DNA of 64,000 bases from Squalus acanthias (taxonomy: Eukaryota). The DNA lies in assembly GCA_030390025.1 (NCBI GenBank), contig JASTWF010000033.1, forward strand, positions 374,001 through 438,000. The letters are read 5' to 3'. Shown piece after piece: positions 8,424 to 62,275 of the stretch (position 1 is its first letter; every line of letters begins with the position of its first letter). The notes under the pieces were generated by a model that was given only the letters and a program-made list of their open reading frames with translations, did no database searches and was not told the DNA's origin. The translations under genes and the position numbers were made by a program.

Positions 8424-8590
8424 CCTGGCCGTACGGAGATGGGCGGCAAATGTACAGAATTTTCGGTTTTAAGTAATTGCAGTTTTGGTAGTTATGGGTT
8501 ATCAAAGTTTAGTTATTTGTGGAGTTTTTAAGTTTAAGGGCTTGAATAATTATCCAGCCAGATAACCTTTCTGGGACATGGATATAAGTT

Positions 8591-29643: not shown

Positions 29644-30478
29644 TACATAGATACATAGATACATAGAAGATAAGAGCAGGAGTAGGCCATCCGGCCCTTC
29701 AATGAGATCATGGCTGATCCTCCAATTCAGTATCCCGTCCCCGCCTTCTCTCCGTAACCCTTAACCCCTTTTGCCTGTAGAAATATATCTAATTCCCTCT
29801 TAAATATATTTAATGAGCTGGCGTACACTGCCCTCTGTGGCAATGAGTTCCACAGGTTCACCACCCTCTGAGTGAAGAAATTCCTCCTCATTTCTGTCCT
29901 AAATGGTTTAGCCCTTATCCTTAACTTATGTCCTCTAGTTCTGTTCTCACCCGCCAAGGGAAACATTCCTTCTGCATCTAGTCTGTCTAGACCTGTCAGA
30001 ATTCTATACACTTCTATGAGGTCCCCTCTCAATCTTCTAAACTCCAGTGTGTACATCCCTAAACTACATAGTCTCTCCTCATAGGTCAATCCCGCCATTC
30101 CTGGTATCAGCCTGGTGAATCGCCGCTGCACCCCCTCCATGGCAAGAACATCTTTCCTCAGATGTGGCGACCAAAACTGTACACAGTACTCGAGGTGTGG
30201 TCTCACCAGTGCCCTGTACAGCTGCAGCAAGGTAGCCCTGTTCCTGTATTCCAACCCTTTTGCTATGAAGGCCAGCATACCGTTTGCCTTCTTGACCGCC
30301 TGTTGCACCTGCATGCTCGCCTTCAGTGACTGGTGTACAAGAACACCCAGGTCTCTCTGTACTTCCCCCTCTCCCAATTTCTTGCCATTTAAATAATAAT
30401 TTGCCCTCCCGTTCCTGCACCCAAGGTGGATAACTTCGCACTTGTCCACATTATAGTGCATCTGCCATTTATCCGCCC
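29644..30478 (-). mobile_element. Young 5'-truncated CR1, same subfamily as the intact element at 40933-45939
   Basis: The open 244-aa ORF is nearly identical to the C-terminus of ORF2 42972-45839; (CTATGTAT)n tail. Confidence 0.95.
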
Positions 30479-40932: not shown

Positions 40933-41495
40933 CTTTCGCGGGCTTTTTTTGCAGAGGCCAGTGTCGGGAGCGGAGAGAGCAGCAGCACAGTGAGTATTTA
41001 AACTCACTTTCGCGGGCTTTTTTTTGCAGAGGCCAGTGTCGGGAGCGGAGAGAGCAGCAGCACAGTGAGTATTTAAACTCACTTTCGCGGGCTTTTTTTT
41101 GCAGAGGCCAGTGTCGGGAGCGGAGAGAGCAGCAGCACAGTGAGTATTTAAACTCACTTTCGCGGGCTTTTTTTTGCAGAGGCCAGTGTCGGGAGCGGAG
41201 AGAGCAGCAGCACAGTGAGTATTTAAACTCACTTTCGCGGGCTTTTTTTTGCAGAGGCCAGTGTCGGGAGCGGAGAGAGCAGCAGCACAGTGAGTATTTA
41301 AACTCACTTTCGCGGGCTTTTTTTTGCAGAGGCCAGTGTCGGGAGCGGAGAGAGCAGCAGCACAGTGAGTATTTAAACTCACTTTCGCGGGCTTTTTTTG
41401 CAGAGGCCAGTGTCGGGAGCGGAGAGAGCAGCAGCACAGTGAGTAGTTAAACTCACTTTCGCGGGCTTTTTTTTTTGCTGAGGCCAGTGTCCGGA
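40933..41495 (+). repeat. CR1 5' UTR 75-bp tandem monomers (~7.5 copies)
   Basis: GCAGAGGCCAG recurs at 40951, 41026, 41101, 41176, 41251, 41326 and 41400. Confidence 0.93.
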
Positions 41496-41949
41496 GAGAC
41501 GAGACCGGAAGCGGACCAGGTGGGAAGCACCCAGGTGAACAGCATTTAAGGAGGGTGGTGGCTTAAACCCGAGTTCCTACAGAGTAGGAACCCCCACCCG
41601 CCCTCCTCCTCTAACCTACTAGTCTTTTAGCAGTCTAAAAACAGAGGTCACAAATTTTTTGGTCTCAGTTTCTTTTCAGCAGGGCAGGAACCGGGAGGAG
41701 CGGGAAGTCGGCGTAGGACCAAGGGGACACAAGACCGGGAAGTCAGCGAAAGACCAGGGAGGTAAGACTAACTGGTAAGTACTTTCCTCAAACCTTCCTA
41801 GAAAGTAAAACTAAAACTAGTGGGATTTGGTTAGTTTAAAAAGGAATAAGAGGAGTACAGTATACATTGGTCTAAGTAAGCTTCGGGAAAACAAAAGTCA
41901 ATAAATAAACTAAAACTAGAAAATTAAAAAGTAATATAAGGGTTAAGTC

Positions 41950-42897
41950 ATGGCAGTAGAGCTCGGACCTGTGTCATGCTCCTCCTGTAACATGTGGGAA
42001 ATCAGGGACGCTTCCTGTGTCCCTGACAACCATGTGTGCGGGAAGTGTGTCCAGCTGCAGCTCATGTGGGACCGCATGACGGCCCTTGAGCTGCGGATGG
42101 ACTCACTTTGGAGCATCCACGATTCTGAGAGGGTTGTGGATAACACATTTAGTGAGTTGGTCACACCGCAGGTTAAGGCCAGCGTAGATAGTACATGGGT
42201 GACCAAAAGGCAGAGCAAGGGCAGGAAGGTAGTGCAGAAATCCCCTGGGGTTGTCTCCCTTAGCAACAGGTTCACCGCCTTAGGTGCTGTTGTCGGGGGG
42301 GATGACTCATCGGGGGAAGGCACCAGCAGCCAGGCTCATGGCACCATGACTGGCTCTGTTGCAAAGAAGGGAGGGAAAAAGAGTGGCAGGGCTATAGTAA
42401 TAGGGGATTCGATTGTAAGGGGAATAGATAGGGGTTTCTGTGGTCGCGACCGAGACTCCAGGATGGTATGTTGCCTCCCTGGTGCAAGGGTCAAGGATGT
42501 CTCGGCGCGGGTGCAGAACATTCTGGAGGGGGAGGGGGAACAGCCAGTTGTCGTGATACATGTTGGTACCAACGACGTAGCTAAAAAAAGGGAAGAGGTC
42601 CTACAAGTAGAATTTAGGGAGTTAGGAGCCAAGCTAAAAAGTAGGACCTCGAAGGTAGTAATCTCTGGATTACTACCAGTGCCACGTGCTAGTAAGAGTA
42701 CAGAGAACAGGATAGTTAGGCTAAATACGTGGCTTGAGCAGTGGTGTAAGAGGGAGGGTTTTAAATTTTTGAGGCATTGGAACCAGTTTTGTGGTAGGTG
42801 TGACCTATACAAAAGGGACGGTCTACACCTGTGCAAAGATGGAACTGATGTTCTCGGGGTAATTTTTGATAAAGCAGTTCGGGAGCATTTAAACTAG
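41950..42897 (+). CDS. CR1 ORF1p (Cys zinc finger, coiled coil, SGNH esterase-like domain)
   Basis: CSSC..CGKC; IGDSIVR, VIHVGTND and DGLHL blocks; 315 aa open. Confidence 0.93.
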   Translation: MAVELGPVSCSSCNMWEIRDASCVPDNHVCGKCVQLQLMWDRMTALELRMDSLWSIHDSERVVDNTFSELVTPQVKASVDSTWVTKRQSKGRKVVQKSPGVVSLSNRFTALGAVVGGDDSSGEGTSSQAHGTMTGSVAKKGGKKSGRAIVIGDSIVRGIDRGFCGRDRDSRMVCCLPGARVKDVSARVQNILEGEGEQPVVVIHVGTNDVAKKREEVLQVEFRELGAKLKSRTSKVVISGLLPVPRASKSTENRIVRLNTWLEQWCKREGFKFLRHWNQFCGRCDLYKRDGLHLCKDGTDVLGVIFDKAVREHLN

Positions 42898-42971
42898 TAT
42901 GGCAGGGGGCTAGAAACCTATGTAGTGAAATAGAGGAAAGTGAAAGGCAGACAGAAATAAATGGTAAAAGA

Positions 42972-45839
42972 GTGAGGAACAAAAAACAAAGGGCCAAACT
43001 AATTCATAAAAAATGTGAGCATAAAAAAAGCCTGAGGGTTTTATACCTTAATGCGAGAAGCATCAGGAACAAGGTAGATGAATTAGCTGTGGAAATAGAG
43101 GTTAATAATTATGATCTAATTGGGATTACGGAAACATGGTTGCAGGGTGAGCAGGGCTGGGAGCTTAACATACAGGGGTATTCAGTATTTAGGAAGGATC
43201 GACAAAAAAGAAAGGGAGGAGGGGTAGCATTGCTGGTAAAAGAAGGGATAAATGCAATTGAAAGGAAGGATATTAACTCAGTTAATACAGAATCTATATG
43301 GGTGGAGCTAAGAAATAGCGAGGGGCGAAAAACATTAATAGGAGTGGTATATAGGCCTCCAAATAGTAAAATAGAGGTTGGGGAGGGCATCACGAGGGAA
43401 ATTAGAGAAGCGTGCAATAAGAGCACAGCTGTCATCATAGGTGACTTTAACTTACATATAGATTGGAATAGCCTAATCAGTAAAAATAATGAGGAGGAGG
43501 AATTCCTTGAGTGTTTAAGGGATGGTTATCTGGATCAATATGTCGAGGAACCAACTCGGGAACAGGCTATATTGGACTGGGTACTGTGCAATGAGAAGGG
43601 ACTAATTAGTAATCTTGTTGTACGGGGACCCTTGGGTCAGAGCGATCATAACATGATCGATTTCTCACTCGAAATGGAGAGCGAAGAAATTGACTCAGAT
43701 ACTAAGGTCCTGAATTTAAACAAGGGGAATTATGATGCCATTAGACGGGAACTGAGTAGGTCTGATTGGACAACGTTCCTGGGAGGACTGGAGGTAGATA
43801 AACAATGGCAAGCATTTAAAGATAGAATGACAAAATTGCAAAAATTGTTTATACCAATCTGGCATAAAAGGAAATCTAAAAAGGTGACTCAACCGTGGAT
43901 AACAGGGGAAATTAGAGACAGCATAAAATCCAAAGATAGGGCGTATAAAATAGCCAAAAAAAGCGCCAGAGCGGAAGATTGGGAACAGTTTAAGATAGAG
44001 CAAAGGAGGACAAAGGGCTTAATCAAGAGGGGCAAAATAGCTTACGAAAGCAAGCTGGCGGAAAATATAAAAACTAACTCCAAAAGCTTTTATAAGTATA
44101 TCAAGAGGAAAAGACTGGTGAAAACCAAAGTTGGCCCATTGCAGTCAGATACGGGGGAATATATAACGGGAAATAAGGAAATGGCAGACCAACTAAATGC
44201 ATACTTTGGGTCAGTCTTTACGAAGGAAGACACAAAAAACCTCCCTGGGATATCGGGAAAAATAGGGACATTTGCAAAGGAGGAACTGACGCAAGTCAAT
44301 ATCTCTAAGGATATGGTGTTAAGGAAGCTAAAGGGATTGAAGGCGGACAAATCCCCAGGGCCTGATAACATGCATCCTAGGGTGCTGAAGGAGGTGGCCC
44401 TAGAGATAGCGGATGCACTAAGTATGATTTTTCAGAATTCATTAGACTCGGGAACAGTGCCCATGGATTGGAGGGTAGCTAACGTTACCCCACTATTCAA
44501 AAAGGGGGGTAGGGAAAAAGCAGGTAATTACAGACCTGTAAGCCTTACATCAGTTGTGGGCAAAATGCTGGAGTCCATCATTAAGGATGAAATAGTGGAG
44601 CACTTAGCAAATGGGGACAGGATAGGACAGAGTCAACATGGATTTACAAAGGGTAAATCGTGCTTGACTAATCTATTGGAATTTTTTGAGGGAGTAACTG
44701 GTAAAATAGATGGGGGAGAGCCAGTAGATGTGGTGTACCTGGACTTCCAAAAGGCCTTCGATAAGGTCCCACATAAAAGATTAGCAGGGAAAATTGAAGC
44801 TCATGGGATAAAGGGGAAAGTATTGACGTGGATAGAGAACTGGCTGTCAGATAGAAAACAGAGAGTTGGAATAAACGGCTCATTTTCTGAATGGCAGGCA
44901 GTAACAAGTGGGGTACCACAGGGATCTGTCCTGGGTCCCCAGCTGTTCACAATTTACATTAATGACCTGGATCAGGGAGTCGGATGCAGCATTTCCAAAT
45001 TTGCAGACGACACTAAACTAGGAGGGGGGGTGGGCTCAGAGGAGGAGACCAGGAAGCTCCAGAGCGATTTGGACAGACTGGGTGATTGGGCGGATAAATG
45101 GCAGATGCACTATAATGTGGACAAGTGCGAAGTTATCCACCTTGGGTGCAGGAACGGGAGGGCAAATTATTATTTAAATGGCAATAAATTGGGAGAGGGG
45201 GAAGTACAGAGAGACCTGGGTGTTCTTGTACACCAGTCACTGAAGGCGAGCATGCAGGTGCAACAGGCGATCAAGAAGGCAAACGGTATGCTGGCCTTCA
45301 TAGCAAAAGGGTTGGAATACAGGAACAGGGATACCTTGCTGCAGCTGTACAGGGCACTGGTGAGACCACACCTCGAGTACTGTGTACAGTTTTGGTCGCC
45401 TCATCTGAGGAAAGATGTTCTTGCCATGGAGGGGGTGCAGCGGCGATTCACCAGGCTGATACCAGGAATGGCGGGATTGACCTATGAGGAGAGACTATGT
45501 AGTTTAGGGATGTACACACTGGAGTTTAGAAGATTGAGAGGGGACCTCATAGAAGTGTATAAAATTCTGACAGGTCTAGACAGACTAGATGCAGAAGGAA
45601 TGTTTCCCTTGGCGGGTGAGAACAGAACTAGAGGACATAATTTAAGGATAAGGGCTAAACCATTTAGGACAGAAATGAGGGGGAATTTCTTCACTCAGAG
45701 GGTGGTGAACCTGTGGAACTCATTGCCACAGAGGGCAGTGTACGCCAGCTCATTAAATATATTTAAGAGGGAATTAGATGTATTTCTACAGGCAAAAGGG
45801 GTTAAGGGTTACGGAGAGAAGGCGGGGACGGGATACTGA
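42972..45839 (+). CDS. CR1 ORF2p (APE endonuclease + reverse transcriptase); frame open from 42873, no in-frame ATG before the endonuclease
   Basis: [38 protein letters not shown] and KFADD; 955 aa uninterrupted. Confidence 0.97.
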   Translation: MRNKKQRAKLIHKKCEHKKSLRVLYLNARSIRNKVDELAVEIEVNNYDLIGITETWLQGEQGWELNIQGYSVFRKDRQKRKGGGVALLVKEGINAIERKDINSVNTESIWVELRNSEGRKTLIGVVYRPPNSKIEVGEGITREIREACNKSTAVIIGDFNLHIDWNSLISKNNEEEEFLECLRDGYLDQYVEEPTREQAILDWVLCNEKGLISNLVVRGPLGQSDHNMIDFSLEMESEEIDSDTKVLNLNKGNYDAIRRELSRSDWTTFLGGLEVDKQWQAFKDRMTKLQKLFIPIWHKRKSKKVTQPWITGEIRDSIKSKDRAYKIAKKSARAEDWEQFKIEQRRTKGLIKRGKIAYESKLAENIKTNSKSFYKYIKRKRLVKTKVGPLQSDTGEYITGNKEMADQLNAYFGSVFTKEDTKNLPGISGKIGTFAKEELTQVNISKDMVLRKLKGLKADKSPGPDNMHPRVLKEVALEIADALSMIFQNSLDSGTVPMDWRVANVTPLFKKGGREKAGNYRPVSLTSVVGKMLESIIKDEIVEHLANGDRIGQSQHGFTKGKSCLTNLLEFFEGVTGKIDGGEPVDVVYLDFQKAFDKVPHKRLAGKIEAHGIKGKVLTWIENWLSDRKQRVGINGSFSEWQAVTSGVPQGSVLGPQLFTIYINDLDQGVGCSISKFADDTKLGGGVGSEEETRKLQSDLDRLGDWADKWQMHYNVDKCEVIHLGCRNGRANYYLNGNKLGEGEVQRDLGVLVHQSLKASMQVQQAIKKANGMLAFIAKGLEYRNRDTLLQLYRALVRPHLEYCVQFWSPHLRKDVLAMEGVQRRFTRLIPGMAGLTYEERLCSLGMYTLEFRRLRGDLIEVYKILTGLDRLDAEGMFPLAGENRTRGHNLRIRAKPFRTEMRGNFFTQRVVNLWNSLPQRAVYASSLNIFKRELDVFLQAKGVKGYGEKAGTGY

Positions 45840-45939
45840 ATTGGAGGATCAGCCATGATCTCATTAAATGGCGGAGCAGGCTCGAAGGGCCGGATGGCCT
45901 ACTCCTGCTCCTATCTTCTATGTATCTATGTATCTATGT

Positions 45940-46202
45940 AACTCGGGTTTAAGCCACCACCCTCCTTAAATGCCGTTCACCTGGGTGCTTCCCACCTGGT
46001 CCGCTTCCGGTCTCGTCGCTCCCGACAACAGCCTGTGAAGAAAAGCCCGCGAAAGTGAGTTCAAATACTCACAGCACTTCACAGCACCTCTGGTCTCGTC
46101 GCTCCCGACAACAGCCTGTGAAGAAAAGCCCGCGAAAGTGAGTTCAAATACTCACAGCACTTCACAGCACCTCTGGTCTCGTCGCTCCCGACAACAGCCT
46201 GT
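45940..46202 (-). mobile_element. Antisense CR1 5' UTR fragment with 83-bp monomers (unit 1)
   Basis: Reverse complement of ~41490-41575 plus related monomers containing GTGAGTATTTGAACTCACTTTCGCGGG. Confidence 0.9.
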
Positions 46203-46748
46203 GGCGGATGGACAGAGTCTGTTGTATCAATGTTTTAAACTGATTTCACTGGCGATCCCCAGCTCTGAATCCCCCAGCAGAGAATTCAAGTAGAGTTTGA
46301 TATAAACGAGATTCAACATCAGTATCAGAACATTACTCTTTGATTCGGGACTCTGATCTCTCTCCAGCATCTCGCTGCTGAAGATTGAACTTGACATAAT
46401 TGCAGCTTGGCTCGGGATCAGTGCGGCTCAGCGGGACTTCGGCCCGTCTCTCCCTTCACAACCCATCAGTGCCGAGAAAAGAACGGGGAATTTTACACAT
46501 GTGTTTTGTTCTGTAACTTTATTTGAACATTTCAGTGCATTTCACGCTGTGTCCAACACGATGAGGTCCCCCCTGGTGTATCAGATTTGTATCTGCATCA
46601 ACACTCCAGCTTTACATTAACACAACCTGAACTCCGAGATCTGGTCCGACCTCATTGCCCCGAAAGTGAGGATTGAGCGGGAGGGGCAATGCCACCCGGG
46701 GTTAGATTTTCCTCCAAGCGGGTGATACAACATTTCATTTACTGTGAA

Positions 46749-46809
46749 GCCCAAATAGCTCAGTTGGGCGAGCGTTAAACTGAAGATCTAAAGATCCCGG
46801 GTTTCGGCA
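46749..46809 (+). pseudogene. tRNA-Phe(GAA) pseudogene with T-arm deletion (copies at 52935-52995 and 59203-59263)
   Basis: GCCCAAATAGCTCAGTTGGGCGAGCGTTAAACTGAAGATCTAAAGATCCCGGGTTTCGGCA followed by TTTTT; the GTCCCTGGTTC segment is missing. Confidence 0.88.
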
Positions 46810-47158
46810 TTTTTGGTTAGGTTGTGTCTCCTTCACTATAAGAAGATAGAAGCAGAAGAGGTTTTCCGCTCGTGAACCCGCGTCCACCAAATGAATGGGA
46901 GTGAAACCACATCTGAGCCGCGGGATCCGGCTCCAGCCGCCCGCTGCGGGTTCGAATCCAGTCGGGTTTGTGAGATTAAAGAGCTCTTTTACTGTTACTT
47001 TCGATTGACACTCTGCCCAGTTGTATATACGAACAGTTAACAATGTTTAAGCGAAGTGGTGTGTTCAATGTTTGTGCAGTAACTCGGTCACCCAGTGTGA
47101 GCCTGAAAGACAATCCCCCAGCCTGGGCTCGAATCTTTCAAACAGGCACTTTGTGACC

Positions 47159-47235
47159 GACCGGTTAGCTCAGTTGGTGAGAACGTGATGCTTCAAGTAA
47201 ATCAATAGCCGCGGGTTTGATCCCCGTATAGGCCA
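47159..47235 (+). pseudogene. tRNA-Ile-derived pseudogene (copies at 53341-53418 and 59609-59686)
   Basis: GACCGGTTAGCTCAGTTGGT..CGCGGGTTTGATCCCCGTA.GGCCA; the anticodon arm is scrambled. Confidence 0.8.
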
Positions 47236-47733
47236 TCAGAATTTGTTCATACTTTTAAGCTTTTTCGAAATACTTAAAATACATACTTTATAAAGAAACA
47301 AATCCACACAGAATCTCACGGGGGAATTATTTGGATTAACATCCATTGTAACTTTGTCACCGTGGCGGAGAGACACATCTTTCTGTTTATTTATGTTTCT
47401 GGGTTTGCTGATGAACGTTGAACTGGCGGCCTGTTCCCGTTAATGGTCACAAGAGGGTAAGAGACAGACAGAGCGGCTCTGACCCCGCGAGATGGGCAAA
47501 AGGCTTCAGTTCAGGAGTAAATGCATCAAATGAAATGTTGGCCAGGCACCGAGAGAGACAACATCCAGAGAAAAGCACAGAAGGAAATAGATCAATCGAA
47601 AACGTTATAAATATTTCCCATGCTTGATGTCTCTCTATTCAATCGCCAACCCTTCAGTGCCGGATAAATAATTCCAGTTTAAGGCGTTCAGTTCGAGAAT
47701 GGCAGCGGAAAGAAACTCAAATGAATTGAAAAC

Positions 47734-47967
47734 TGCCGAATCCCGGGATTGAATCAGGGACCATTATTAAATCTGTAGAGAGAAAAACAGAGTTAACGTT
47801 TCAGGTCGATGACCGTTCGTCTGACGTTAACTGTTTCTCTCTCTACAGATGCTGCCTGATCTGCTGAACATTTCCAGCATTTTCTGTTTTTATTTGAAAT
47901 TTCCAGTATTTTGCTTTTGTACCTTTATAAATCTTCAAGTCGCTCATCCCAACTGAGCTATTGCGGC
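47734..47967 (-). pseudogene. tRNA-Phe pseudogene split by a ~160-bp palindromic insertion (copies at 53917-54150 and 60185-60418)
   Basis: TGCCGAATCCCGGGATTGAATCAGGGACC | insert | ..CCCAACTGAGCTATTGCGGC. Confidence 0.75.
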
Positions 47968-48767
47968 TACGGTGCAACCTACAGTGCGTCATCCTCTCGG
48001 AGGGAAAGGGAAGGGTTTGTGTCCAGAGTCCGCTGCGTTTACATCAAGCATCTAATTCACCTGCAGGTTGGAGGAGCAGAGGAGGCTGGAGGGAAAGAAT
48101 TGATAGGAGCAGAAGGAGAAGCCATTTGAAACTGGCAGAATCTTGTGTCTGACTGTTGTTTCAAATGATGCCGGACAGCCCTGCGTGGATTGGCAGTTTT
48201 CCCAGGAGCTGCATTGTTCGGTGCCTGCATTTTAGACATGGAAACATGTCCATCAGGAGCTTGTGGTAATATTTCACCTCACTGTGCATTTCAAGTGGAT
48301 GCCTACCCGCACTTGGTGCTGTGGTTGCGCGAACATGTCTTTTGTGTTCTTACCTAAAATGTCATTTTATACAAACAGTTTGCCTGGCGCGAAAGAGTTA
48401 AAAAGGGGACAAAGAGTGAAATGGACGGGGTTGCTGCGGTGTGTGAAATATGGTGACGATCTATGGTTATTATCCGAGGCGACGCTGCAGGATCCTTTAA
48501 AGATCTCCCGCGGATCCACTGAAACCAGTTGAGAGGGTTTTTTTGCACCGTCAGGGCAGGAAACGGGAGTGAGTGAGGGACACTGTCGGTATCTGTGCTG
48601 AGTTTGAGTCTGTGAAGAATGGTATGGGCTCAGATAATATACGGAATCTATGAGATATTTTATTGATATTTAATTACAATATGAATGCTTCAATTTTTCA
48701 TATTTGTTCAACTTTAATGGGGAAGTTTTCTTTCCCGTTTCCAACCGGGGACCATTTCTCGAACATA

Positions 48768-48833
48768 GTTTCCCGCCCGGGATTGAATCGGGGCTTGTGA
48801 GGGGAACCTTGATAACCACTACACTACGGAAAC
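48768..48833 (-). pseudogene. tRNA-Val(CAC)-derived pseudogene (copies at 54951-55016 and 61219-61284)
   Basis: Reverse complement begins GTTTCCGTAGTGTAGTGGTTATCA; internal deletion. Confidence 0.8.
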
Positions 48834-49128
48834 CTCTGCTTTGCTAAATATCCAGAAAGATCTGTTCAGCGAGAAGGTGAAATGCTGAATCCCAGATTCT
48901 GGATTAATTTCCTTTCACTAACATTTCTCTGACCGAAACTGCACAAGTCAAAAATGTTCCTTTCAAAGTCATTAAATTCTCGAATTTCCGCGTCGCCACC
49001 CAAATCTTCTGAATCAGATGCCTCCATTTTGCCACTCAATCAATGTCCCTTTGCAATTCCCTGCTCCCATCCACACTAATTACTGCGCCACTGTCGATCA
49101 GCGATAATAGATATTCAAAGTGAACCGG

Positions 49129-49180
49129 CCATGCGAGTTCAGTCGGCAGCAGGCTCTTGGGTTCGGACCCCAAGTTAGGC
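49129..49180 (+). pseudogene. Heavily deleted tRNA-Lys(CTT)-like remnant (repeated in each unit)
   Basis: ..AGTTCAGTCGG..GGGTTCGGACCCCAAGTTAGGCG, compared with tRNA-Lys GGGTTCGAGCCCCACGTTGGGCG. Confidence 0.5.
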
Positions 49181-49736
49181 GAAGGTTATTGTTAAACTTT
49201 TTGTTTGTTGCTTTCACGGCAAATCATCATGAATTCACCGGTAATTTTCTTTGGCACAATGAAAGAAATGCTAACTGAGGGAGAGTCGATACTTCAATCA
49301 TTTTATTTGTGCTTTGCACGTTAACTGTTACCCAGATCTCCTTTTACACACGGTACTTTAGGAGTCTGGTTTAAAGTGTTCATTGCTGATGACACCAGGA
49401 ATCTGGGGCAATATTTGTCAAATTGAACAGCACCGGTTATTTCCACCGTGCTCAAAAAATAGAATCAGCAGTGAACATGAAATCCCATTGTGCTGACATT
49501 CAGATTCAACGCAGTCAGCTTTGAAATAAAGGGAAATTATTTTACAATGAAAAGATTGGGAAGTAAGTGTTACTGGTATTTGTGCCTTTAATTAAAGGTT
49601 GTGGCGTCTGACTCCCGTTCATATTTCTTCTTCCTCTGTTGAATAAGAAAGTGGGAATGACGTTGACCAGACTGCACTGCGCCTGATGTTTGTGAGCTCA
49701 TCCTTTATATTGAGCGGTTTCTCAACATTTGATCGA

Positions 49737-49824
49737 CGTCAGCTTTAGCTCAGCGGTTACTTCGCAGCACCAACTTAATTCTAAGTTCGAACCCTGTCTC
49801 ACCGCGGGCGCTGCCTGGCGTTTT
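49737..49824 (+). ncRNA. vtRNA: Vault RNA-like gene, unit 1
   Basis: GCTTTAGCTCAGCGGTTACTTCG is the vtRNA 5' conserved block. 3' CCGCGGGCGCT..CTGGCG followed by TTTT. Terminal stem CGTCAG/CTGGCG, internal GTTCGAACC, TATA-like at ~-30 and TGACGT at 49658. Confidence 0.85.
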
Positions 49825-51089
49825 ATTGTCATTTTCAACCCCCTGCTTTTACACCGAAACAAATTGTAACGGTGATTTCAATTTAGCTGTGTGAAATTTT
49901 TAGAGGGCAACTTTAAACGATTCATTGCCTACTCCTGTCAGCATCGCGACCCGTGTTCGATTCCCGGTTTTGGAATTAACTTTGATATCAACGTTTTTAA
50001 TTAATTAATGCGAAGTAATTTTATTAAATTACTAACATGCATCTAATGTGAAAAATAAGAATTGTTTTAATGACCATTATTGAACCAATAACTTCCTTTT
50101 GCAGAATGAAATATATTATAATATGGTTACTGAGGGACAGTCAAAACTTCAGTCATTTAATTTGCTCTTTGCCTGTGCTGAACTGTTAACCTATATCTCA
50201 TTGTATACATTGTATTTTGGGAGAATGGTTTAAAATGTTTATTGCTTGTGAGAGCAGGGATCTGGGGCAACTTTTGTTAATTTAACAGGACCGGCTATTT
50301 CACAGAAAAAAAATTCTCTGACATAATGTTTTCAGACCATACACTGACCGATCATTCTTAGGCCCAAAGTGGATGATCTGACACTTGCCCACATTGAACT
50401 CCATTAATCGCTGTTCAGGGGAGATTTAATAGAACTGTTCAAAGTTATGGGGGAAATTGTTTCCACTGGCAGGAGGGTCAGTAGGGCTGTGGGGGAAGAG
50501 CAGCGGAATGGGACTAATTGGATAGCTCTTTCAACGATGCTGCATCAATTGTTCATTTTAATCTGCGATTGATAGATTTTTGTTAACGAAAGGTATTAAA
50601 GGATAATTCAAGTCTGTGAGACTCCTTATAATTGTTTCAATCATCATTAATCAACACACAACATTGTGTTGCTCACTGCAGGAATTGCTAACAAGTTTAC
50701 TGAGTGACAGCCAAACTTGAATAACCTTTTATAGAATCATAGAATCATACAGCACAGAAGGAGGACATTCGGACAATTATTCCCACTCCCCAGCTCTTTT
50801 TCCAAAGCCCTGCAAGTGTTTCTTTTTCAATTTCTTTCCCTTTTGAAAGTTAATATTGAATCTGCTTTTACCACCCTGTCAGGCAGAAAAATGTGTACAT
50901 CAATGTTATCCAAGTCCCATTTCACACAGTGATTTCCCTGCTTTGCATGTCATGAACTTTCATCCCTTCTCATTTTGCACACTCTATTTTAGGAGTTTGT
51001 TTAAAAATGTTCGATGCTTGTGACGTCAGCCATTGCTAGATTGAAAAGGATTGTAGCTCCTTTCCTTGGAAATCTCTGCCCCAAAATGC

Positions 51090-51292
51090 TGTTGATGCTC
51101 ATTCGTTGAGTATATTCGAGGCTGAGATCGATAGATTTTTGGACTGTAGTGGAATCAAGGGAGATGGGGATAGGCAGGAAAGTGGAGTTGAGGTCCAAGA
51201 TCAGCCATTATCTGATTGAATGGCGGTGCAGGCTCGGGGGGCCATAGGGCCGACTCCTGCTCCTAATTCTTTCGTTCTTCTGTTCTTATGTC
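51090..51292 (+). mobile_element. CR1 3' end fragment in the array unit (other CR1 scraps at ~50340-50530 and 50735-50885)
   Basis: IFEAEIDRFL..GIKG-like sequence followed by the GATCAGCCAT..GAATGGCGG..CTCCTGCTCCTA tail. Confidence 0.75.
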
Positions 51293-51518
51293 CTTTCACA
51301 GGAGAGCAAACTCGCCCCTGGACCTGCATGAGGAGCAAGTGCCAACAAAATGTTTCCGAGAAAGTGATACCTCCTACACTGCAGAAACGTCTCCACTTTC
51401 AGTACCAGGTCTGATGGAAATGTTCAGCGAGCAGGTGAAACGCTGAATCCCACTTTTGAGAGACTTCCCAAAGCGCAGCACAAGAAATGTGTTGCCCTTA
51501 GTAATTAAATATAAGCAA

Positions 51519-51601
51519 TGTCAGAATTGGGGTTCGAACTCACGCCTTCAGCGAAGGCTGCGACCTGAACGCAGCGTCTTAGACCGCTCCGCCAACCTGA
51601 C
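51519..51601 (-). pseudogene. tRNA-Leu(CAG), probably a pseudogene (copies at 57703-57785 and partial 63971-64000)
   Basis: Reverse complement GTCAGGTTGGCGGAGCGGTCTAAGACGCTGCGTTCAGGTCGCAG..GTTCGAACCCCAATTCTGACA; mismatches in the acceptor and T stems. Confidence 0.85.
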
Positions 51602-52127
51602 TTAGATTGATGTGTAACTTGTCACTTCCGCATTTAGAAAGTTTCAGTTCGGGTGCTTGTTCAATGCTGCTCGAAGGCTCAGTGACCGGGATATCATCTC
51701 CCCCGGGGTGTTTCTGAGACTGTGCTCGGTGTATGGGGAGGTTTGGCCCGGGTCCGTGGTATCTTGCAGCCCAGGGATGGACAATAACCCTCTGAGCTCT
51801 GGAGCTGAGGAAGAGCGAGTAAATAATGGGTTTGTTTCCGCGTCTGAAATGCGGCTTCGATCTGCTGGTATTAACCGAGGCCGGGGCTGCGAGATGTTGC
51901 ATTTTGTTCACGTTTAATCAGAGGAATATCCTTGTCAGGAGCTGAAAAGGACCAAGAGCTGAAAAAACACAAGACAAAAGATAAGAAATGTAAGCAATTG
52001 TGATAAACTGTTTAAAGTGTTTTCTGGTAGTTTCGTGTTTTAATTGTTTTAATCACCATTCATTAACCGATAGCGTTGTTTTTGCAGAATGAAAGAGATG
52101 CTCACACTGAGGGACAGTCGAAACTTC

Positions 52128-52388
52128 AATTTGTGACCTCTGTTTTTAGACTGCTAAAAGACTAGTAGGTTAGAGGAGGAGGGCGGGTGGGGGTTCCTAC
52201 TCTGTAGGAACTCGGGTTTAAGCCACCACCCTCCTTAAATGCCGTTCACCTGGGTGCTTCCCACCTGGTCCGCTTCCGGTCTCGTCGCTCCCGACAACAG
52301 CCTGTGAAGAAAAGCCCGCGAAAGTGAGTTCAAATACTCACAGCACTTCACAGCACCTCTGGTCTCGTCGCTCCCGACAACAGCCTGT
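52128..52388 (-). mobile_element. Antisense CR1 5' UTR fragment (unit 2; one fewer 83-bp monomer)
   Basis: Reverse complement of ~41490-41655 plus a monomer. Confidence 0.9.
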
Positions 52389-55300
52389 GGCGGATGGACA
52401 GAGTCTGTTGTATCAATGTTTTAAACTGATTTCACTGGCGATCCCCAGCTCTGAATCCCCCAGCAGAGAATTCAAGTAGAGTTTGATATAAACGAGATTC
52501 AACATCAGTATCAGAACATTACTCTTTGATTCGGGACTCTGATCTCTCTCCAGCATCTCGCTGCTGAAGATTGAACTTGACATAATTGCAGCTTGGCTCG
52601 GGATCAGTGCGGCTCAGCGGGACTTCGGCCCGTCTCTCCCTTCACAACCCATCAGTGCCGAGAAAAGAACGGGGAATTTTACACATGTGTTTTGTTCTGT
52701 AACTTTATTTGAACATTTCAGTGCATTTCACGCTGTGTCCAACACGATGAGGTCCCCCCTGGTGTATCAGATTTGTATCTGCATCAACACTCCAGCTTTA
52801 CATTAACACAACCTGAACTCCGAGATCTGGTCCGACCTCATTGCCCCGAAAGTGAGGATTGAGCGGGAGGGGCAATGCCACCCGGGGTTAGATTTTCCTC
52901 CAAGCGGGTGATACAACATTTCATTTACTGTGAAGCCCAAATAGCTCAGTTGGGCGAGCGTTAAACTGAAGATCTAAAGATCCCGGGTTTCGGCATTTTT
53001 GGTTAGGTTGTGTCTCCTTCACTATAAGAAGATAGAATCAGAAGAGGTTTTCCGCTCGTGAACCCGCGTCCACCAAATGAATGGGAGTGAAACCACATCT
53101 GAGCCGCGGGATCCGGCTCCAGCCGCCCGCTGCGGGTTCGAATCCAGTCGGGTTTGTGAGATTAAAGAGCTCTTTTACTGTTACTTTCGATTGACACTCT
53201 GCCCAGTTGTATATACGAACAGTTAACAATGTTTAAGCGATGTGGTGTGTTCAATGTTTGTGCAGTAACTCGGTCACCCAGTGTGAGCCTGAAAGACAAT
53301 CCCCCAGCCTGGGCTCGAATCTTTCAAACAGGCACTTTGTGACCGGTTAGCTCAGTTGGTGAGAACGTGATGCTTCAAGTAAATCAATAGCCGCGGGTTT
53401 GATCCCCGTATAAGGCCATCAGAATTTGTTCATACTTTTAAGCTTTTTCGAAATACTTAAAATACATACTTTATAAAGAAACAAATCCACACAGAATCTC
53501 ACGGGGGAATTATTTGGATTAACATCCATTGTAACTTTGTCACCGTGGCGGAGAGACACATCTTTCTGTTTATTTATGTTTCTGGGTTTGCTGATGAACG
53601 TTGAACTGGCGGCCTGTTCCCGTTAATGGTCACAAGAGGGTAAGAGACAGACAGAGCGGCTCTGACCCCGCGAGATGGGCAAAAGGCTTCAGTTCAGGAG
53701 TAAATGCATCAAATGAAATGTTGGCCCGGCACCGAGAGAGACAACATCCAGAGAAAAGCACAGAAGGAAATAGATCAATCGAAAACGTTATAAATATTTC
53801 CCATGCTTGATGTCTCTCTATTCAATCGCCAACCCTTCAGTGCCGGATAAATAATTCCAGTTTAAGGCGTTCAGTTCGAGAATGGCAGCGGAAAGAAACT
53901 CAAATGAATTGAAAACTGCCGAATCCCGGGATTGAATCAGGGACCATTATTAAATCTGTAGAGAGAAAAACAGAGTTAACGTTTCAGGTCGATGACCGTT
54001 CGTCTGACGTTAACTGTTTCTCTCTCTACAGATGCTGCCTGATCTGCTGAACATTTCCAGCATTTTCTGTTTTTATTTGAAATTTCCAGTATTTTGCTTT
54101 TGTACCTTTATAAATCTTCAAGTCGCTCATCCCAACTGAGCTATTGCGGCTACGGTGCAACCTACAGTGCGTCATCCTCTCGGAGGGAAAGGGAAGGGTT
54201 TGTGTCCAGAGTCCGCTGCGTTTACATCAAGCATCTAATTCACCTGCAGGTTGGAGGAGCAGAGGAGGCTGGAGGGAAAGAAGTGATAGGAGCAGAAGGA
54301 GAAGCCATTTGAAACTGGCAGAATCTTGTGTCTGACTGTTGTTTCAAATGATGCCGGACAGCCCTGCGTGGATTGGCAGTTTTCCCAGGAGCTGCATTGT
54401 TCGGTGCCTGCATTTTAGACATGGAAACATGTCCATCAGGAGCTTGTGGTAATATTTCACCTCACTGTGCATTTCAAGTGGATGCCTACCCGCACTTGGT
54501 GCTGTGGTTGCGCGAACATGTCTTTTGTGTTCTTACCTAAAATGTCATTTTGTACAAACAGTTTGCCTGGCGCGAAAGAGTTAAAAAGGGGACAAAGAGT
54601 GAAATGGACGGGGTTGCTGCGGTGTGTGAAATATGGTGACGATCTATGGTTATTATCCGAGGCGACGCTGCAGGATCCTTTAAAGATCTCCCGCGGATCC
54701 ACTGAAACCAGTTGAGAGGGGTTTTTTGCACCGTCAGGGCAGGAAACGGGAGTGAGTGAGGGACACTGTCGGTATCTGTGCTGAGTTTGAGTCTGTGAAG
54801 AATGGTATGGGCTCAGATAATATACGGAATCTATGAGATATTTTATTGATATTTAATTACAATATGAATGCTTCAATTTTTCATATTTGTTCAACTTTAA
54901 TGGGGAAGTTTTCTTTCCCGTTTCCAACCGGGGACCATTTCTCGAACATAGTTTCCCGCCCGGGATTGAATCGGGGCTTGTGAGGGGAACCTTGATAACC
55001 ACTACACTACGGAAACCTCTGCTTTGCTAAATATCCAGAAAGATCTGTTCAGCGAGAAGGTGAAATGCTGAATCCCAGATTCTGGATTAATTTCCTTTCA
55101 CTAACATTTCTCTGACCGAAACTGCACAAGTCAAAAATGTTCCTTTCAAAGTCATTAAATTCTCGAATTTCCGCGTCGCCACCCAAATCTTCTGAATCAG
55201 ATGCCTCCATTTTGCCACTCAATCAATGTCCCTTTGCAATTCCCTGCTCCCATCCACACTAATTACTGCGCCACTGTCGATCAGCGATAATAGATATTCA

Positions 55301-55919
55301 AAGTGAACCGGCCATGCGAGTTCAGTCGGCAGCAGGCTCTTGGGTTCGGACCCCAAGTTAGGCGAAGGTTATTGTTAAACTTTTTGTTTGTTGCTTTCAC
55401 GGCAAATCATCATGAATTCACCGGTAATTTTCTTTGGCACAATGAAAGAAATGCTAACTGAGGGAGAGTCGATACTTCAATCATTTTATTTGTGCTTTGC
55501 ACGTTAACTGTTACCCAGATCTCCTTTTACACACGGTACTTTAGGAGTCTGGTTTAAAGTGTTCATTGCTGATGACACCAGGAATCTGGGGCAATATTTG
55601 TCAAATTGAACAGCACCGGTTATTTCCACCGTGCTCAAAAAATAGAATCAGCAGTGAACATGAAATCCCATTGTGCTGACATTCAGATTCAACGCAGTCA
55701 GTTTTGAAATAAAGGGAAATTATTTTACAATGAAAAGATTGGGAAGTAAGTGTTACTGGTATTTGTGCCTTTAATTAAAGGTTGTGGCGTCTGACTCCCG
55801 TTCATATTTCTTCTTCCTCTGTTGAATAAGAAAGTGGGAATGACGTTGACCAGACTGCACTGCGCCTGATGTTTGTGAGCTCATCCTTTATATTGAGCGG
55901 TTTCTCAACATTTGATCGA

Positions 55920-56007
55920 CGTCAGCTTTAGCTCAGCGGTTACTTCGCAGCACCAACTTAATTCTAAGTTCGAACCCTGTCTCACCGCGGGCGCTGCCTG
56001 GCGTTTT
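55920..56007 (+). ncRNA. vtRNA: Vault RNA-like gene, unit 2
   Basis: Identical to 49737-49824. Confidence 0.85.
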
Positions 56008-58313
56008 ATTGTCATTTTCAACCCCCTGCTTTTACACCGAAACAAATTGTAACGGTGATTTCAATTTAGCTGTGTGAAATTTTTAGAGGGCAACTTTAAA
56101 CGATTCATTGCCTACTCCTGTCAGCATCGCGACCCGTGTTCGATTCCCGGTTTTGGAATTAACTTTGATATCAACGTTTTTAATTAATTAATGCGAAGTA
56201 ATTTTATTAAATTACTAACATGCATCTAATGTGAAAAATAAGAATTGTTTTAATGACCATTATTGAACCAATAACTTCCTTTTGCAGAATGAAATATATT
56301 ATAATATGGTTACTGAGGGACAGTCAAAACTTCAGTCATTTAATTTGCTCTTTGCCTGTGCTGAACTGTTAACCTATATCTCATTGTATACATTGTATTT
56401 TGGGAGAATGGTTTAAAATGTTTATTGCTTGTGAGAGCAGGGATCTGGGGCAACTTTTGTTAATTTAACAGGATCGGCTATTTCACAGAAAAAAAAATTC
56501 TCTGACATAATGTTTTCAGACCATACACTGACCGATCATTCTTAGGCCCAAAGTGGATGATCTGACACTTGCCCACATTGAACTCCATTAATCGCTGTTC
56601 AGGGGAGATTTAATAGAACTGTTCAAAGTTATGGGGGAAATTGTTTCCACTGGCAGGAGGGTCAGTAGGGCTGTGGGGGAAGAGCAGCGGAATGGCACTA
56701 ATTGGATAGCTCTTTCAACGATGCTGCATCAATTGTTCATTTTAATCTGCGATTGATAGATTTTTGTTAACGAAAGGTATTAAAGGATAATTCAAGTCTG
56801 TGAGACTCCTTATAATTGTTTCAATCATCATTAATCAACACACAACATTGTGTTGCTCACTGCAGGAATTGCTAACAAGTTTACTGAGTGACAGCCAAAC
56901 TTGAATAACCTTTTATAGAATCATAGAATCATACAGCACAGAAGGAGGACATTCGGACAATTATTCCCACTCCCCAGCTCTTTTTCCAAAGCCCTGCAAG
57001 TGTTTCTTTTTCAATTTCTTTCCCTTTTGAAAGTTAATATTGAATCTGCTTTTACCACCCTGTCAGGCAGAAAAATGTGTACATCAATGTTATCCAAGTC
57101 CCATTTCACACAGTGATTTCCCTGCTTTGCATGTCATGAACTTTCATCCCTTCTCATTTTGCACACTCTATTTTAGGAGTTTGTTTAAAAATGTTCGATG
57201 CTTGTGACGTCAGCCATTGCTAGATTGAAAAGGATTGTAGCTCCTTTCCTTGGAAATCTCTGCCCCAAAATGCTGTTGATGCTCATTCGTTGAGTATATT
57301 CGAGGCTGAGATCGATAGATTTTTGGACTGTAGTGGAATCAAGGGAGATGGGGATAGGCAGGAAAGTGGAGTTGAGGTCCAAGATCAGCCATTATCTGAT
57401 TGAATGGCGGTGCAGGCTCGGGGGGCCATAGGGCCGACTCCTGCTCCTAATTCTTTCGTTCTTCTGTTCTTATGTCCTTTCACAGGAGAGCAAACTCGCC
57501 CCTGGACCTGCATGAGGAGCAAGTGCCAACAAAATGTTTCCGAGAAAGTGATACCTCCTACACTGCAGAAACGTCTCCACTTTCAGTACCAGGTCTGATG
57601 GAAATGTTCAGCGAGCAGGTGAAACGCTGAATCCCACTTTTGAGAGACTTCCCAAAGCGCAGCACAAGAAATGTGTTGCCCTTAGTAATTAAATATAAGC
57701 AATGTCAGAATTGGGGTTCGAACTCACGCCTTCAGCGAAGGCTGCGACCTGAACGCAGCGTCTTAGACCGCTCCGCCAACCTGACTGTTAGATTGACTTG
57801 TAACTTGTCACTTCCGCATTTAGAAAGTTTCAGTTCGGGTGCTTGTTCAATGCTGCTCGAAGGCTCAGTGACCGGGATATCATCTCCCCCGGGGTGTTTC
57901 TGAGACTGTGCTCGGTGTATGGGGAGGTTTGGCCCGGGTCCGTGGTATCTTGCAGCCCAGGGATGGACAATAACCCTCTGAGCTCTGGAGCTGAGGAAGA
58001 GCGAGTAAATAATGGGTTTGTTTCCGCGTCTGAAATGCGGCTTCGATCTGCTGGTATTAACCGAGGCCGGGGCTGCGAGATGTTGCATTTTGTTCACGTT
58101 TAATCAGAGGAATATCCTTGTCAGGAGCTGAAAAGGACCAAGAGCTGAAAAAACACAAGACAAAAGATAAGAAATGTAAGCAATTGTGATAAACTGTTTA
58201 AAGTGTTTTCTGGTAGTTTCGTGTTTTAATTGTTTTAATCACCATTCATTAACCGATAGCGTTGTTTTTGCAGAATGAAAGAGATGCTCACACTGAGGGA
58301 CAGTCGAAACTTC

Positions 58314-58656
58314 AATTTGTGACCTCTGTTTTTAGACTGCTAAAAGACTAGTAGGTTAGAGGAGGAGGGCGGGTGGGGGTTCCTACTCTGTAGGAACTCG
58401 GGTTAAGCCACCACCCTCCTTAAATGCCGTTCACCTGGGTGCTTCCCACCTGGTCCGCTTCCGGTCTCGTCGCTCCCGACAACAGCCTGTGAAGAAAAGC
58501 CCGCGAAAGTGAGTTCAAATACTCACAGCACTTCACAGCACCTCTGGTCTCGTCGCTCCCGACAACAGCCTGTGAAGAAAAGCCCGCGAAAGTGAGTTCA
58601 AATACTCACAGCACTTCACAGCACCTCTGGTCTCGTCGCTCCCGACAACAGCCTGT
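58314..58656 (-). mobile_element. Antisense CR1 5' UTR fragment (unit 3)
   Basis: As in unit 2, but with two 83-bp monomers. Confidence 0.9.
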
Positions 58657-61600
58657 GGCGGATGGACAGAGTCTGTTGTATCAATGTTTTAAACTGATTT
58701 CACTGGCGATCCCCAGCTCTGAATCCCCCAGCAGAGAATTCAAGTAGAGTTTGATATAAACGAGATTCAACATCAGTATCAGAACATTACTCTTTGATTC
58801 GGGACTCTGATCTCTCTCCAGCATCTCGCTGCTGAAGATTGAACTTGACATAATTGCAGCTTGGCTCGGGATCAGTGCGGCTCAGCGGGACTTCGGCCCG
58901 TCTCTCCCTTCACAACCCATCAGTGCCGAGAAAAGAACGGGGAATTTTACACATGTGTTTTGTTCTGTAACTTTATTTGAACATTTCAGTGCATTTCACG
59001 CTGTGTCCAACACGATGAGGTCCCCCCTGGTGTATCAGATTTGTATCTGCATCAACACTCCAGCTTTACATTAACACAACCTGAACTCCGAGATCTGGTC
59101 CGACCTCATTGCCCCGAAAGTGAGGATTGAGCGGGAGGGGCAATGCCACCCGGGGTTAGATTTTCCTCCAAGCGGGTGATACAACATTTCATTTACTGTG
59201 AAGCCCAAATAGCTCAGTTGGGCGAGCGTTAAACTGAAGATCTAAAGATCCCGGGTTTCGGCATTTTTGGTTAGGTTGTGTCTCCTTCACTATAAGAAGA
59301 TAGAATCAGAAGAGGTTTTCCGCTCGTGAACCCGCGTCCACCAAATGAATGGGAGTGAAACCACATCTGAGCCGCGGGATCCGGCTCCAGCCGCCCGCTG
59401 CGGGTTCGAATCCAGTCGGGTTTGTGAGATTAAAGAGCTCTTTTACTGTTACTTTCGATTGACACTCTGCCCAGTTGTATATACGAACAGTTAACAATGT
59501 TTAAGCGATGTGGTGTGTTCAATGTTTGTGCAGTAACTCGGTCACCCAGTGTGAGCCTGAAAGACAATCCCCCAGCCTGGGCTCGAATCTTTCAAACAGG
59601 CACTTTGTGACCGGTTAGCTCAGTTGGTGAGAACGTGATGCTTCAAGTAAATCAATAGCCGCGGGTTTGATCCCCGTATAAGGCCATCAGAATTTGTTCA
59701 TACTTTTAAGCTTTTTCGAAATACTTAAAATACATACTTTATAAAGAAACAAATCCACACAGAATCTCACGGGGGAATTATTTGGATTAACATCCATTGT
59801 AACTTTGTCACCGTGGCGGAGAGACACATCTTTCTGTTTATTTATGTTTCTGGGTTTGCTGATGAACGTTGAACTGGCGGCCTGTTCCCGTTAATGGTCA
59901 CAAGAGGGTAAGAGACAGACAGAGCGGCTCTGACCCCGCGAGATGGGCAAAAGGCTTCAGTTCAGGAGTAAATGCATCAAATGAAATGTTGGCCCGGCAC
60001 CGAGAGAGACAACATCCAGAGAAAAGCACAGAAGGAAATAGATCAATCGAAAACGTTATAAATATTTCCCATGCTTGATGTCTCTCTATTCAATCGCCAA
60101 CCCTTCAGTGCCGGATAAATAATTCCAGTTTAAGGCGTTCAGTTCGAGAATGGCAGCGGAAAGAAACTCAAATGAATTGAAAACTGCCGAATCCCGGGAT
60201 TGAATCAGGGACCATTATTAAATCTGTAGAGAGAAAAACAGAGTTAACGTTTCAGGTCGATGACCGTTCGTCTGACGTTAACTGTTTCTCTCTCTACAGA
60301 TGCTGCCTGATCTGCTGAACATTTCCAGCATTTTCTGTTTTTATTTGAAATTTCCAGTATTTTGCTTTTGTACCTTTATAAATCTTCAAGTCGCTCATCC
60401 CAACTGAGCTATTGCGGCTACGGTGCAACCTACAGTGCGTCATCCTCTCGGAGGGAAAGGGAAGGGTTTGTGTCCAGAGTCCGCTGCGTTTACATCAAGC
60501 ATCTAATTCACCTGCAGGTTGGAGGAGCAGAGGAGGCTGGAGGGAAAGAAGTGATAGGAGCAGAAGGAGAAGCCATTTGAAACTGGCAGAATCTTGTGTC
60601 TGACTGTTGTTTCAAATGATGCCGGACAGCCCTGCGTGGATTGGCAGTTTTCCCAGGAGCTGCATTGTTCGGTGCCTGCATTTTAGACATGGAAACATGT
60701 CCATCAGGAGCTTGTGGTAATATTTCACCTCACTGTGCATTTCAAGTGGATGCCTACCCGCACTTGGTGCTGTGGTTGCGCGAACATGTCTTTTGTGTTC
60801 TTACCTAAAATGTCATTTTGTACAAACAGTTTGCCTGGCGCGAAAGAGTTAAAAAGGGGACAAAGAGTGAAATGGACGGGGTTGCTGCGGTGTGTGAAAT
60901 ATGGTGACGATCTATGGTTATTATCCGAGGCGACGCTGCAGGATCCTTTAAAGATCTCCCGCGGATCCACTGAAACCAGTTGAGAGGGGTTTTTTGCACC
61001 GTCAGGGCAGGAAACGGGAGTGAGTGAGGGACACTGTCGGTATCTGTGCTGAGTTTGAGTCTGTGAAGAATGGTATGGGCTCAGATAATATACGGAATCT
61101 ATGAGATATTTTATTGATATTTAATTACAATATGAATGCTTCAATTTTTCATATTTGTTCAACTTTAATGGGGAAGTTTTCTTTCCCGTTTCCAACCGGG
61201 GACCATTTCTCGAACATAGTTTCCCGCCCGGGATTGAATCGGGGCTTGTGAGGGGAACCTTGATAACCACTACACTACGGAAACCTCTGCTTTGCTAAAT
61301 ATCCAGAAAGATCTGTTCAGCGAGAAGGTGAAATGCTGAATCCCAGATTCTGGATTAATTTCCTTTCACTAACATTTCTCTGACCGAAACTGCACAAGTC
61401 AAAAATGTTCCTTTCAAAGTCATTAAATTCTCGAATTTCCGCGTCGCCACCCAAATCTTCTGAATCAGATGCCTCCATTTTGCCACTCAATCAATGTCCC
61501 TTTGCAATTCCCTGCTCCCATCCACACTAATTACTGCGCCACTGTCGATCAGCGATAATAGATATTCAAAGTGAACCGGCCATGCGAGTTCAGTCGGCAG

Positions 61601-62187: not shown

Positions 62188-62275
62188 CGTCAGCTTTAGC
62201 TCAGCGGTTACTTCGCAGCACCAACTTAATTCTAAGTTCGAACCCTGTCTCACCGCGGGCGCTGCCTGGCGTTTT
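62188..62275 (+). ncRNA. vtRNA: Vault RNA-like gene, unit 3
   Basis: Identical to 49737-49824. Confidence 0.85.

Follow-up and report, generated by a model that had tools for sequence, protein, structure and literature searches.

How a long interspersed nuclear element (LINE) translates its second open reading frame (ORF2) has been described as an open question (PMC3894237; this and the other published sources are cited throughout for the parts covered by our searches). The question is posed sharply by an intact CR1 LINE of Squalus acanthias, found in 64,000 nucleotides of contig JASTWF010000033.1 (hereafter the window), because its ORF2 lies in the -1 frame relative to ORF1 and has no ATG ahead of its endonuclease domain. 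An earlier note on this sequence had proposed -1 ribosomal frameshifting at the heptamer U_UUA_AAC. We find that this heptamer is a real and deeply conserved feature, and we consider programmed -1 frameshifting on it, giving a 1296-amino-acid ORF1-ORF2 fusion, to be the probable answer (probability about three in four). The argument uses the following features.

40933-45939, plus strand: intact CR1 LINE, recognized by its ORFs, domains and 3' end
41950-42897, plus strand: ORF1, a reading frame of 315 amino acids from the ATG at 41950 to an end in L-N-stop
42888-42894, plus strand: slippery heptamer T_TTA_AAC (TTTAAAC), in X_XXY_YYZ phase
42895-42897, plus strand: ORF1 stop codon TAG, directly 3' of the heptamer
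42873-45839, plus strand: ORF2 frame, -1 to ORF1, 988 amino acids from stop to stop and 981 after the shift site
42894-43031, plus strand: linker from the shift site to the endonuclease, stop-free and purine-rich, with an in-frame GTG at 42972 and no ATG
43050-43649, plus strand: APE endonuclease domain (PF03372; PF14529 also matched in ORF2)
44508-45140, plus strand: reverse transcriptase domain (PF00078, E 3e-31)

The end of ORF1 reads CAT TTA AAC TAG, with the first T of the heptamer at codon position 3. The -1 frame reads TTT AAA CTA GTA TGG (FKLVWQGARNLCSEIEE), encodes FKLVWQG... and remains free of stops to 45839, so that the two ORFs overlap by 25 nucleotides. Direct reading thus agreed with the earlier note on the heptamer and its phase just before the ORF1 stop, on the -1 frame being open from 42873 into ORF2, and on the start codons: none of the ATGs at 42899, 42920 and 42961 is in frame with ORF2, and the first in-frame ATG, at 43653 (SDHNM), lies downstream of the endonuclease motifs YLNARS, GITETW, GDFN and SDH. 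What the note took for an annotated GTG start of ORF2 comes from no annotation and is merely the first in-frame GTG (42972). Judged by base composition, a canonical XXXYYYZ heptamer would fall in the overlap (about 6 in-phase positions) with p of 0.01 to 0.02, and exactly TTTAAAC in phase with p of about 3e-4. There are 20 plus-strand copies of TTTAAAC in the window and a single occurrence of TTTAAACTAG. Two further canonical heptamers stand in phase within ORF1, but from them the -1 frame runs into a stop after 50 and 2 codons. Tandem slippage would give a fusion with the junction ...EHLN-LVWQ...; the esterase-APE-reverse transcriptase order that had been predicted for this protein stands, its estimated size of ~1290 amino acids is corrected to 1296, and of the two transframe peptides suggested, EHLN-LVWQ is the one expected from canonical tandem slippage and EHLK-LVWQ is not.

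The junction is shared by other copies of the family. Reads and contigs of four public runs were aligned to positions 41560-43760; for two of these runs, X16 and X11, an RNA origin is a guess, and X23 is a raw-read RNA run whose reads are mostly under 95% alike. Record 22 of X16 runs from 42750 to 43213, ungapped and with a single difference, and records 15 and 16 of X11 cover both sides of the junction. Among the differences listed, none in any of the four runs is an insertion or deletion at the junction, and the single nearby one common to all four (42971) creates no ATG. The junction thus recurs without a gap in contigs of the family, and the window copy is not defective there. Across runs X1-X16, with eight organism codes, 91-93% of the words of the junction region were found, which suggests a very young family spread over several labels.

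To follow the heptamer beyond the family, we used a metagenome scan anchored on the esterase motifs of ORF1 rather than on the heptamer. It yielded 80 loci, of which 29 were classed as vertebrate-type on their best ORF1 match: 28 were closest to the bird-like protein P0124, itself 44% identical to a shearwater protein, and 1 was closest to the crocodilian-like P0121. Seventeen of these end before the junction and were left out of the count, and L019, L052 and L054 (27-31% matches), L050, L057, L058, L076 and L078 were counted in neither group. TTTAAAC stood in phase at every one of the 12 vertebrate-type loci that reach the junction. With the window added, all seven positions were invariant in 13/13 sequences, against a maximum of 9/13 at the twelve upstream third-codon positions, and the stop that follows in the 12 loci varied (TAG 8, TAA 1, TGA 1, decayed 2). 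In the nine intact ORF1 tails, where the window is 24-33% identical to the others, the final L and N were always encoded by TTA and AAC, while each of the other three invariant residues used 2-3 codons; TTA makes up 10% of leucine codons, giving p of about 0.012 per independent lineage. Three protein scans of viral contigs were without a match, and 0/62 pattern matches there had a CR1 match. Prokaryote genome contigs held 21 weak SGNH loci.

Consensus sequences labelled CR1 show the same arrangement. In the searched part of the supplement of PMC13343379, 18 of 23 matches to TTTAAAC plus a stop lay, as judged by eye, at an ORF1 end; they came from 12 species, from chimaera, sharks and rays to coelacanth, bowfin, frog, lizard and crocodilians, and were followed by TAG (11), TAA (6) or TGA (1). 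Supplement file 2 of PMC4316615 gave no match at an ORF1 end.

Proteins pointed the same way. Among the proteins from one homolog search whose C terminus lies 20-32 residues past the DGxH motif, half (36/72) finish in LN, the remaining 36 being mostly teleost L2-type ORF1s. Over all 274 proteins, LN closed 80 of the 92 homologs with DGxH exactly 26 residues from the end, a figure that carries a small bias, as the queries themselves ended in LN. The named LN-enders include rays, sharks, an eel, a frog, three turtles, a monitor lizard and an alligator. Residues that have no codon ending in T (E, K, Q, M or W) preceded LN in 1 of 94 distinct tails, compared with 15% at nearby positions (binomial p 3e-6, with kin that are not independent). 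Three ray-like proteins (P0035, P0060 and P0127) run through the site as ...FKL..., which is TTT AAA CT read one base back. The earlier note had asked, as a check on its proposal, whether CR1 subfamilies keep the heptamer in phase; the check holds at the DNA and the protein level, and the note's suggestion that such an ORF1 end may be widespread among vertebrate CR1s proved right. One further homolog, P0009, is a shark-type CR1 ORF1 (58% identical to the window's) that bears the source label Pseudomonas aeruginosa SGNH hydrolase, probably through contamination.

The reading frames also keep their register. Of the 11 sequences that contain the endonuclease, 10 encode it in the -1 frame and have no stop between it and the heptamer, the linkers being 33-89 amino acids long; the exception, L061, is decayed. 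In 9/12 sequences the -1 frame opens just 1-5 codons upstream of the heptamer, so any shift is confined to the heptamer. The window's linker was open in 2% of shuffles (P about 0.02).

We propose that most ribosomes translate ORF1 and terminate at the TAG at 42895, and that a minority would slip back one base on U_UUA_AAC, the Leu and Asn tRNAs re-pairing on UUU and AAA. The slipped ribosomes would bypass the stop and read the linker, the endonuclease and the reverse transcriptase, producing an esterase-linker-APE-reverse transcriptase fusion, and the frequency of slippage would set a low ratio of ORF2 protein to ORF1 protein, as gag-pol frameshifting does. The pause would probably come from slow decoding of the adjacent stop, from a G-run 10 nucleotides downstream, or from both, rather than from a local pseudoknot. 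U_UUA_AAC is among the most shift-prone heptamers for vertebrate-type (mammalian) ribosomes (PMC5009743). Two features bear on the stimulator.

42905-42909, plus strand: GGGGG run 10 nucleotides 3' of the heptamer, candidate stimulator
42850-42886, plus strand: hairpin just 5' of the heptamer (z -2.2)

GGGGG occupied heptamer positions +17 to +21 in 11/11 vertebrate-type sequences that cover all five positions. A spacing of 10 nucleotides from the shift site is also that of the arterivirus nsp2 motif. The 5' hairpin was considered as a conserved signal and discarded, being present in the window copy alone and not kept in relatives.

Several observations weigh against frameshifting. RNA folding, which the earlier note had suggested as a check, revealed no 3' stimulator in the window or its relatives: stem-loops 3' of the heptamer were not stable (z between 0.1 and 0.3 for the window and from -1.1 to 1.6 for junction loci, by a folding method that does not cover pseudoknots), and because no 3' fold beats shuffles, a defining feature of canonical -1 signals, the stimulatory stem-loop or pseudoknot at a distance of 5-9 nucleotides, is missing. 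The G-run shares no long-range partner, its best partners lying at unrelated places in six elements, and it is shifted or absent in several of the consensus sequences. An in-frame AUG precedes the endonuclease in 7/10 in-register sequences, and in four of those seven it is at codon 5, two nucleotides after the stop. The counts themselves have limits: the metagenome loci are kin, most of them bird-type, and are therefore not independent, and the supplement matches were found by a motif search without a denominator, about 400 letters per consensus appearing searchable. Nor is the missing AUG of the window proof of a fusion, because ORF2 of L1 is thought to be translated AUG-independently (PMC5009743). 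Conservation and register support the frameshift interpretation, and, because a 3' stimulator is missing and many relatives have an ORF2 AUG, the mechanism itself is something we infer.

The AUGs lead to a different account, in which termination-reinitiation or non-AUG initiation, as in L1 and SART1, would yield a free ORF2 protein. Bird-type elements would restart translation on a nearby AUG, and the window's family on a near-cognate codon, for instance GTG 42972; the role of the conserved heptamer and the G-run would then be to tether ribosomes or to signal reinitiation. Because 7/10 sequences have a pre-endonuclease AUG, AUG reinitiation is open to many relatives; in an eighth the AUG coincides with the start of the endonuclease, which leaves the window and L048 as the only two clearly without one. 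For a non-AUG start, the window's linker offers in-frame ATA, AGG and GTG codons, and precedents exist in AUG-independent initiation on L1 (PMC5009743) and the UAAUG of SART1 (PMC3894237). Yet the position of the AUG is not conserved (codon 4, 5, 23, 29 or none), and stop identity and linker vary too, whereas the heptamer is invariant; moreover, the conserved word fits the -1 slippage rule in both letters and phase, as does a variant, G_TTA_AAC, described below. The window has neither an AUG spacer nor a UAAUG, and its ORFs overlap by 25 nucleotides, an arrangement of the L1 or SART1 type being partly found in bird-type relatives. A start at the GTG would leave 25 preceding open codons unexplained (P 0.07, weak). 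We regard initiation of a free ORF2 protein as unlikely but as a real rival, and note that frameshifting and reinitiation could both operate side by side in bird-type elements.

It is also conceivable that the C-terminal L-N is kept for the sake of the protein, with the heptamer as a by-product, or that a single ORF has been broken by a private insertion or deletion. L-N does stand at the end of the final predicted helix of every vertebrate-type ORF1, and a few database proteins, such as P0035 and P0127, are fused in frame. But selection on the protein cannot account for the fixed TTA and AAC or for the T at the third position before them, the identical junction in family contigs and the common out-of-frame register in 10/11 sequences argue against a private indel, and three fused entries stand against about 100 that stop at LN. 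We consider both versions highly improbable. Least probable of all is splicing that supplies ORF2 with a start codon or joins it in frame to ORF1, which the earlier note had named as a possible refutation: the 5' untranslated region (UTR) does contain words resembling GT donors and AG acceptors, but the linker is rich in purines (107/146), the 20 nucleotides ahead of any AG in it include at most 11 pyrimidines, and no splice joint into ORF2 was seen in the aligned runs, where 0/9 listed joints had GT..AG ends or landed at the ORF2 start and none was supported by X23.

Programmed frameshifting at the CR1 junction would have parallels in several known systems. For the Dictyostelium elements TRE5-A and TRE3-A, which like CR1 are APE-type LINEs with two ORFs, a -1 frameshift is said to be required for ORF2 translation (PMC5911963); they differ from CR1 in lineage and host, in targeting tRNA genes, in their oligo(A) tail and in that no esterase ORF1 is described for them. 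Coronavirus ORF1a/1b (infectious bronchitis virus type) uses the same heptamer, U_UUA_AAC, in the same phase, and retroviral and long terminal repeat (LTR) element gag-pol fuses a structural or RNA-binding protein to a polymerase at a low ratio, as proposed here (PMC5009743). Both of these use a 3' pseudoknot or stem-loop, whereas in CR1 none was found, the stop abuts the heptamer and the G-run follows at 10 nucleotides. Closer to the G-run is arterivirus nsp2, where a short unstructured 3' motif acts through bound proteins (nsp1beta and PCBP; PMC5009743), although that motif is C-rich and directs a -2/-1 shift, while the CR1 motif is a run of G with no known binding protein. L1 and SART1 resemble CR1 in their bicistronic LINE RNA and low ORF2 output; unlike the window's CR1, with its 25-nucleotide overlap and lack of AUG, L1 has a spacer and AUG-independent initiation (PMC5009743), and SART1 has an overlapping UAAUG (PMC3894237) that the window's CR1 does not.

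Among esterase-ORF1 LINEs, zebrafish ZfL2-1, of the L2 clade, has an ORF1 homologous to that of CR1 (4c1b). Its ORF2 was reportedly proposed to be made by stop-codon suppression, that is, as a fusion (Kajikawa et al. 2012, Gene 499:41). Unlike those of CR1, teleost L2-type ORF1s do not end in LN, and the route reportedly proposed for ZfL2-1 is readthrough rather than frameshifting. In the literature searched we found no frameshift proposal for CR1, and an earlier remark in older CR1 papers or Repbase Reports is quite possible. No literature record combined CR1, retrotransposon and UUUAAAC; CR1 was unmentioned in the searched part of PMC5009743; the word "frameshift" was absent from the searched parts of PMC13343379, PMC3894237, PMC4120745, PMC3905857 and PMC3708506; and those of PMC4255032, PMC11835228, PMC5006619, PMC4176376 and PMC4700185 contained no CR1 frameshift proposal.

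Other esterase-ORF1 LINEs carry what may be further recoding signals. L001, on a separate branch of the esterase tree, reads G_TTA_AAC_TAG, with an intact -1 frame of 973 amino acids and a G-run three nucleotides closer. At the protein level, ten distant ORF1s end in QGN or SGN, which fits G_GGA_AAC, and others end in SKN or FF(R/H), which fit other slippery heptamers (together P0184, P0189, P0192, P0204, P0210, P0218, P0220, P0243, P0245, P0266, P0215, P0227 and P0183). A different solution is suggested by 42 of the 80 metagenome loci (within L023-L080), which form one group with reverse transcriptases 36-43% identical to the window's. TGA stands at the end of ORF1 in 35 of the 41 that reach it, as TGA-CTA in 18 and TGA-CCA in 13 (together 31/41), and the endonuclease is in the same frame as ORF1 in most loci that contain it. 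TGA-CTA is a known readthrough context, and the arrangement suggests stop-codon readthrough as a candidate route to an ORF1-ORF2 fusion in this group. Fusion by recoding may then be the rule for esterase-ORF1 LINEs. The broadest form of the proposal, to which we give an even chance, is that all vertebrate CR1s, the prevailing repeats of sharks, reptiles and birds, make their reverse transcriptase as an ORF1-ORF2 fusion via one U_UUA_AAC kept since before the shark/bony-fish split, with a structure-free stimulator (the adjacent stop plus the G-run, which may bind a protein), and that, more widely, esterase-ORF1 LINEs have swapped -1 frameshifting (U_UUA_AAC, G_UUA_AAC and probably G_GGA_AAC) and UGA-CUA/CCA readthrough while the fusion was kept, like retroviral gag-pol.

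For the CR1 clade, the heptamer gives the question of ORF2 translation a precise, seven-base answer that is testable. CR1-group DNA makes up 22-34% of elasmobranch genomes (PMC13343379). If the proposal is correct, the CR1 ORF2 protein would bear the esterase and the dimerizing part of ORF1 at its N terminus, full-length copies labelled "no start codon" or "frameshift" would be intact rather than dead, and any assay of an active CR1 would have to retain the junction. The junction may also reveal a -1 stimulator other than a local RNA fold.

The assignment of the element to CR1 draws on its SGNH esterase ORF1, its ORF2 with APE and reverse transcriptase, and its microsatellite 3' end, all features of the clade. 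Two further parts complete its anatomy.

40933-41949, plus strand: 5' UTR with a tandem repeat, the exact 5' end not being fixed
45840-45939, plus strand: 3' UTR ending in short (ATCTATGT)n repeats, with no poly(A)

CR1 LINEs end 3' in a short tandem repeat without poly(A). In the window's element (ATCTATGT)n occupies 45915-45939, and an identical ending is found in a truncated copy at 29644. The 5' UTR repeat, at 40933-41496, comprises 7.5 copies of 75 bp with a 98% match; TTTAAAC is present in most of its units too, outside any ORF. ORF1 begins with a CxxC...CxxC N terminus and closes with the SGNH esterase (PF13472, E 4e-11; 4c1b, E 3e-29), an ORF1 type described for CR1 and L2 (PMC13343379). 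Its best named matches are from sharks and rays, with 66-69% identity to two Pristiophorus proteins, and the junction closely resembles the consensus sequences PriPec_CR1-7 and ScyCan_CR1-1a, both labelled CR1. The reverse transcriptase is 55-57% identical to those of bird-type loci and L001 and far from fish P0134, in a tree without a named CR1 reference and with long-branch warnings. By eye we recognized no target-site duplication at the element's ends, of which the 5' one is not fixed. The truncated copy (29644-30478, minus strand) lacks the 5' part and belongs to the same family; its 97% identity and matching 3' microsatellite mark the family as young. The remaining CR1 pieces in the window have likewise lost their 5' part and do not contain the junction.

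The element sits at the left edge of a tandem array (45940-64000) whose ~6.2-kb units are 99.7% alike; every unit contains a vault RNA gene (Rfam RF00006 at 49736, 55919 and 62187) and a weak tRNA-like match. Inverted pieces in these units (45940-46155, 52128-52341 and 58314-58609) are 82-93% like the CR1's own 5' UTR, and the CR1 3' end abuts one of them. Elsewhere in the window, long ORFs of 614, 254 and 497 amino acids with a weak zinc-knuckle match (5498-10846, plus strand) are probably an LTR or retroviral remnant, and a 325-amino-acid ORF (20234-21211, minus strand) matches rhodopsin-family seven-transmembrane receptors (PF00001, E 4e-17).

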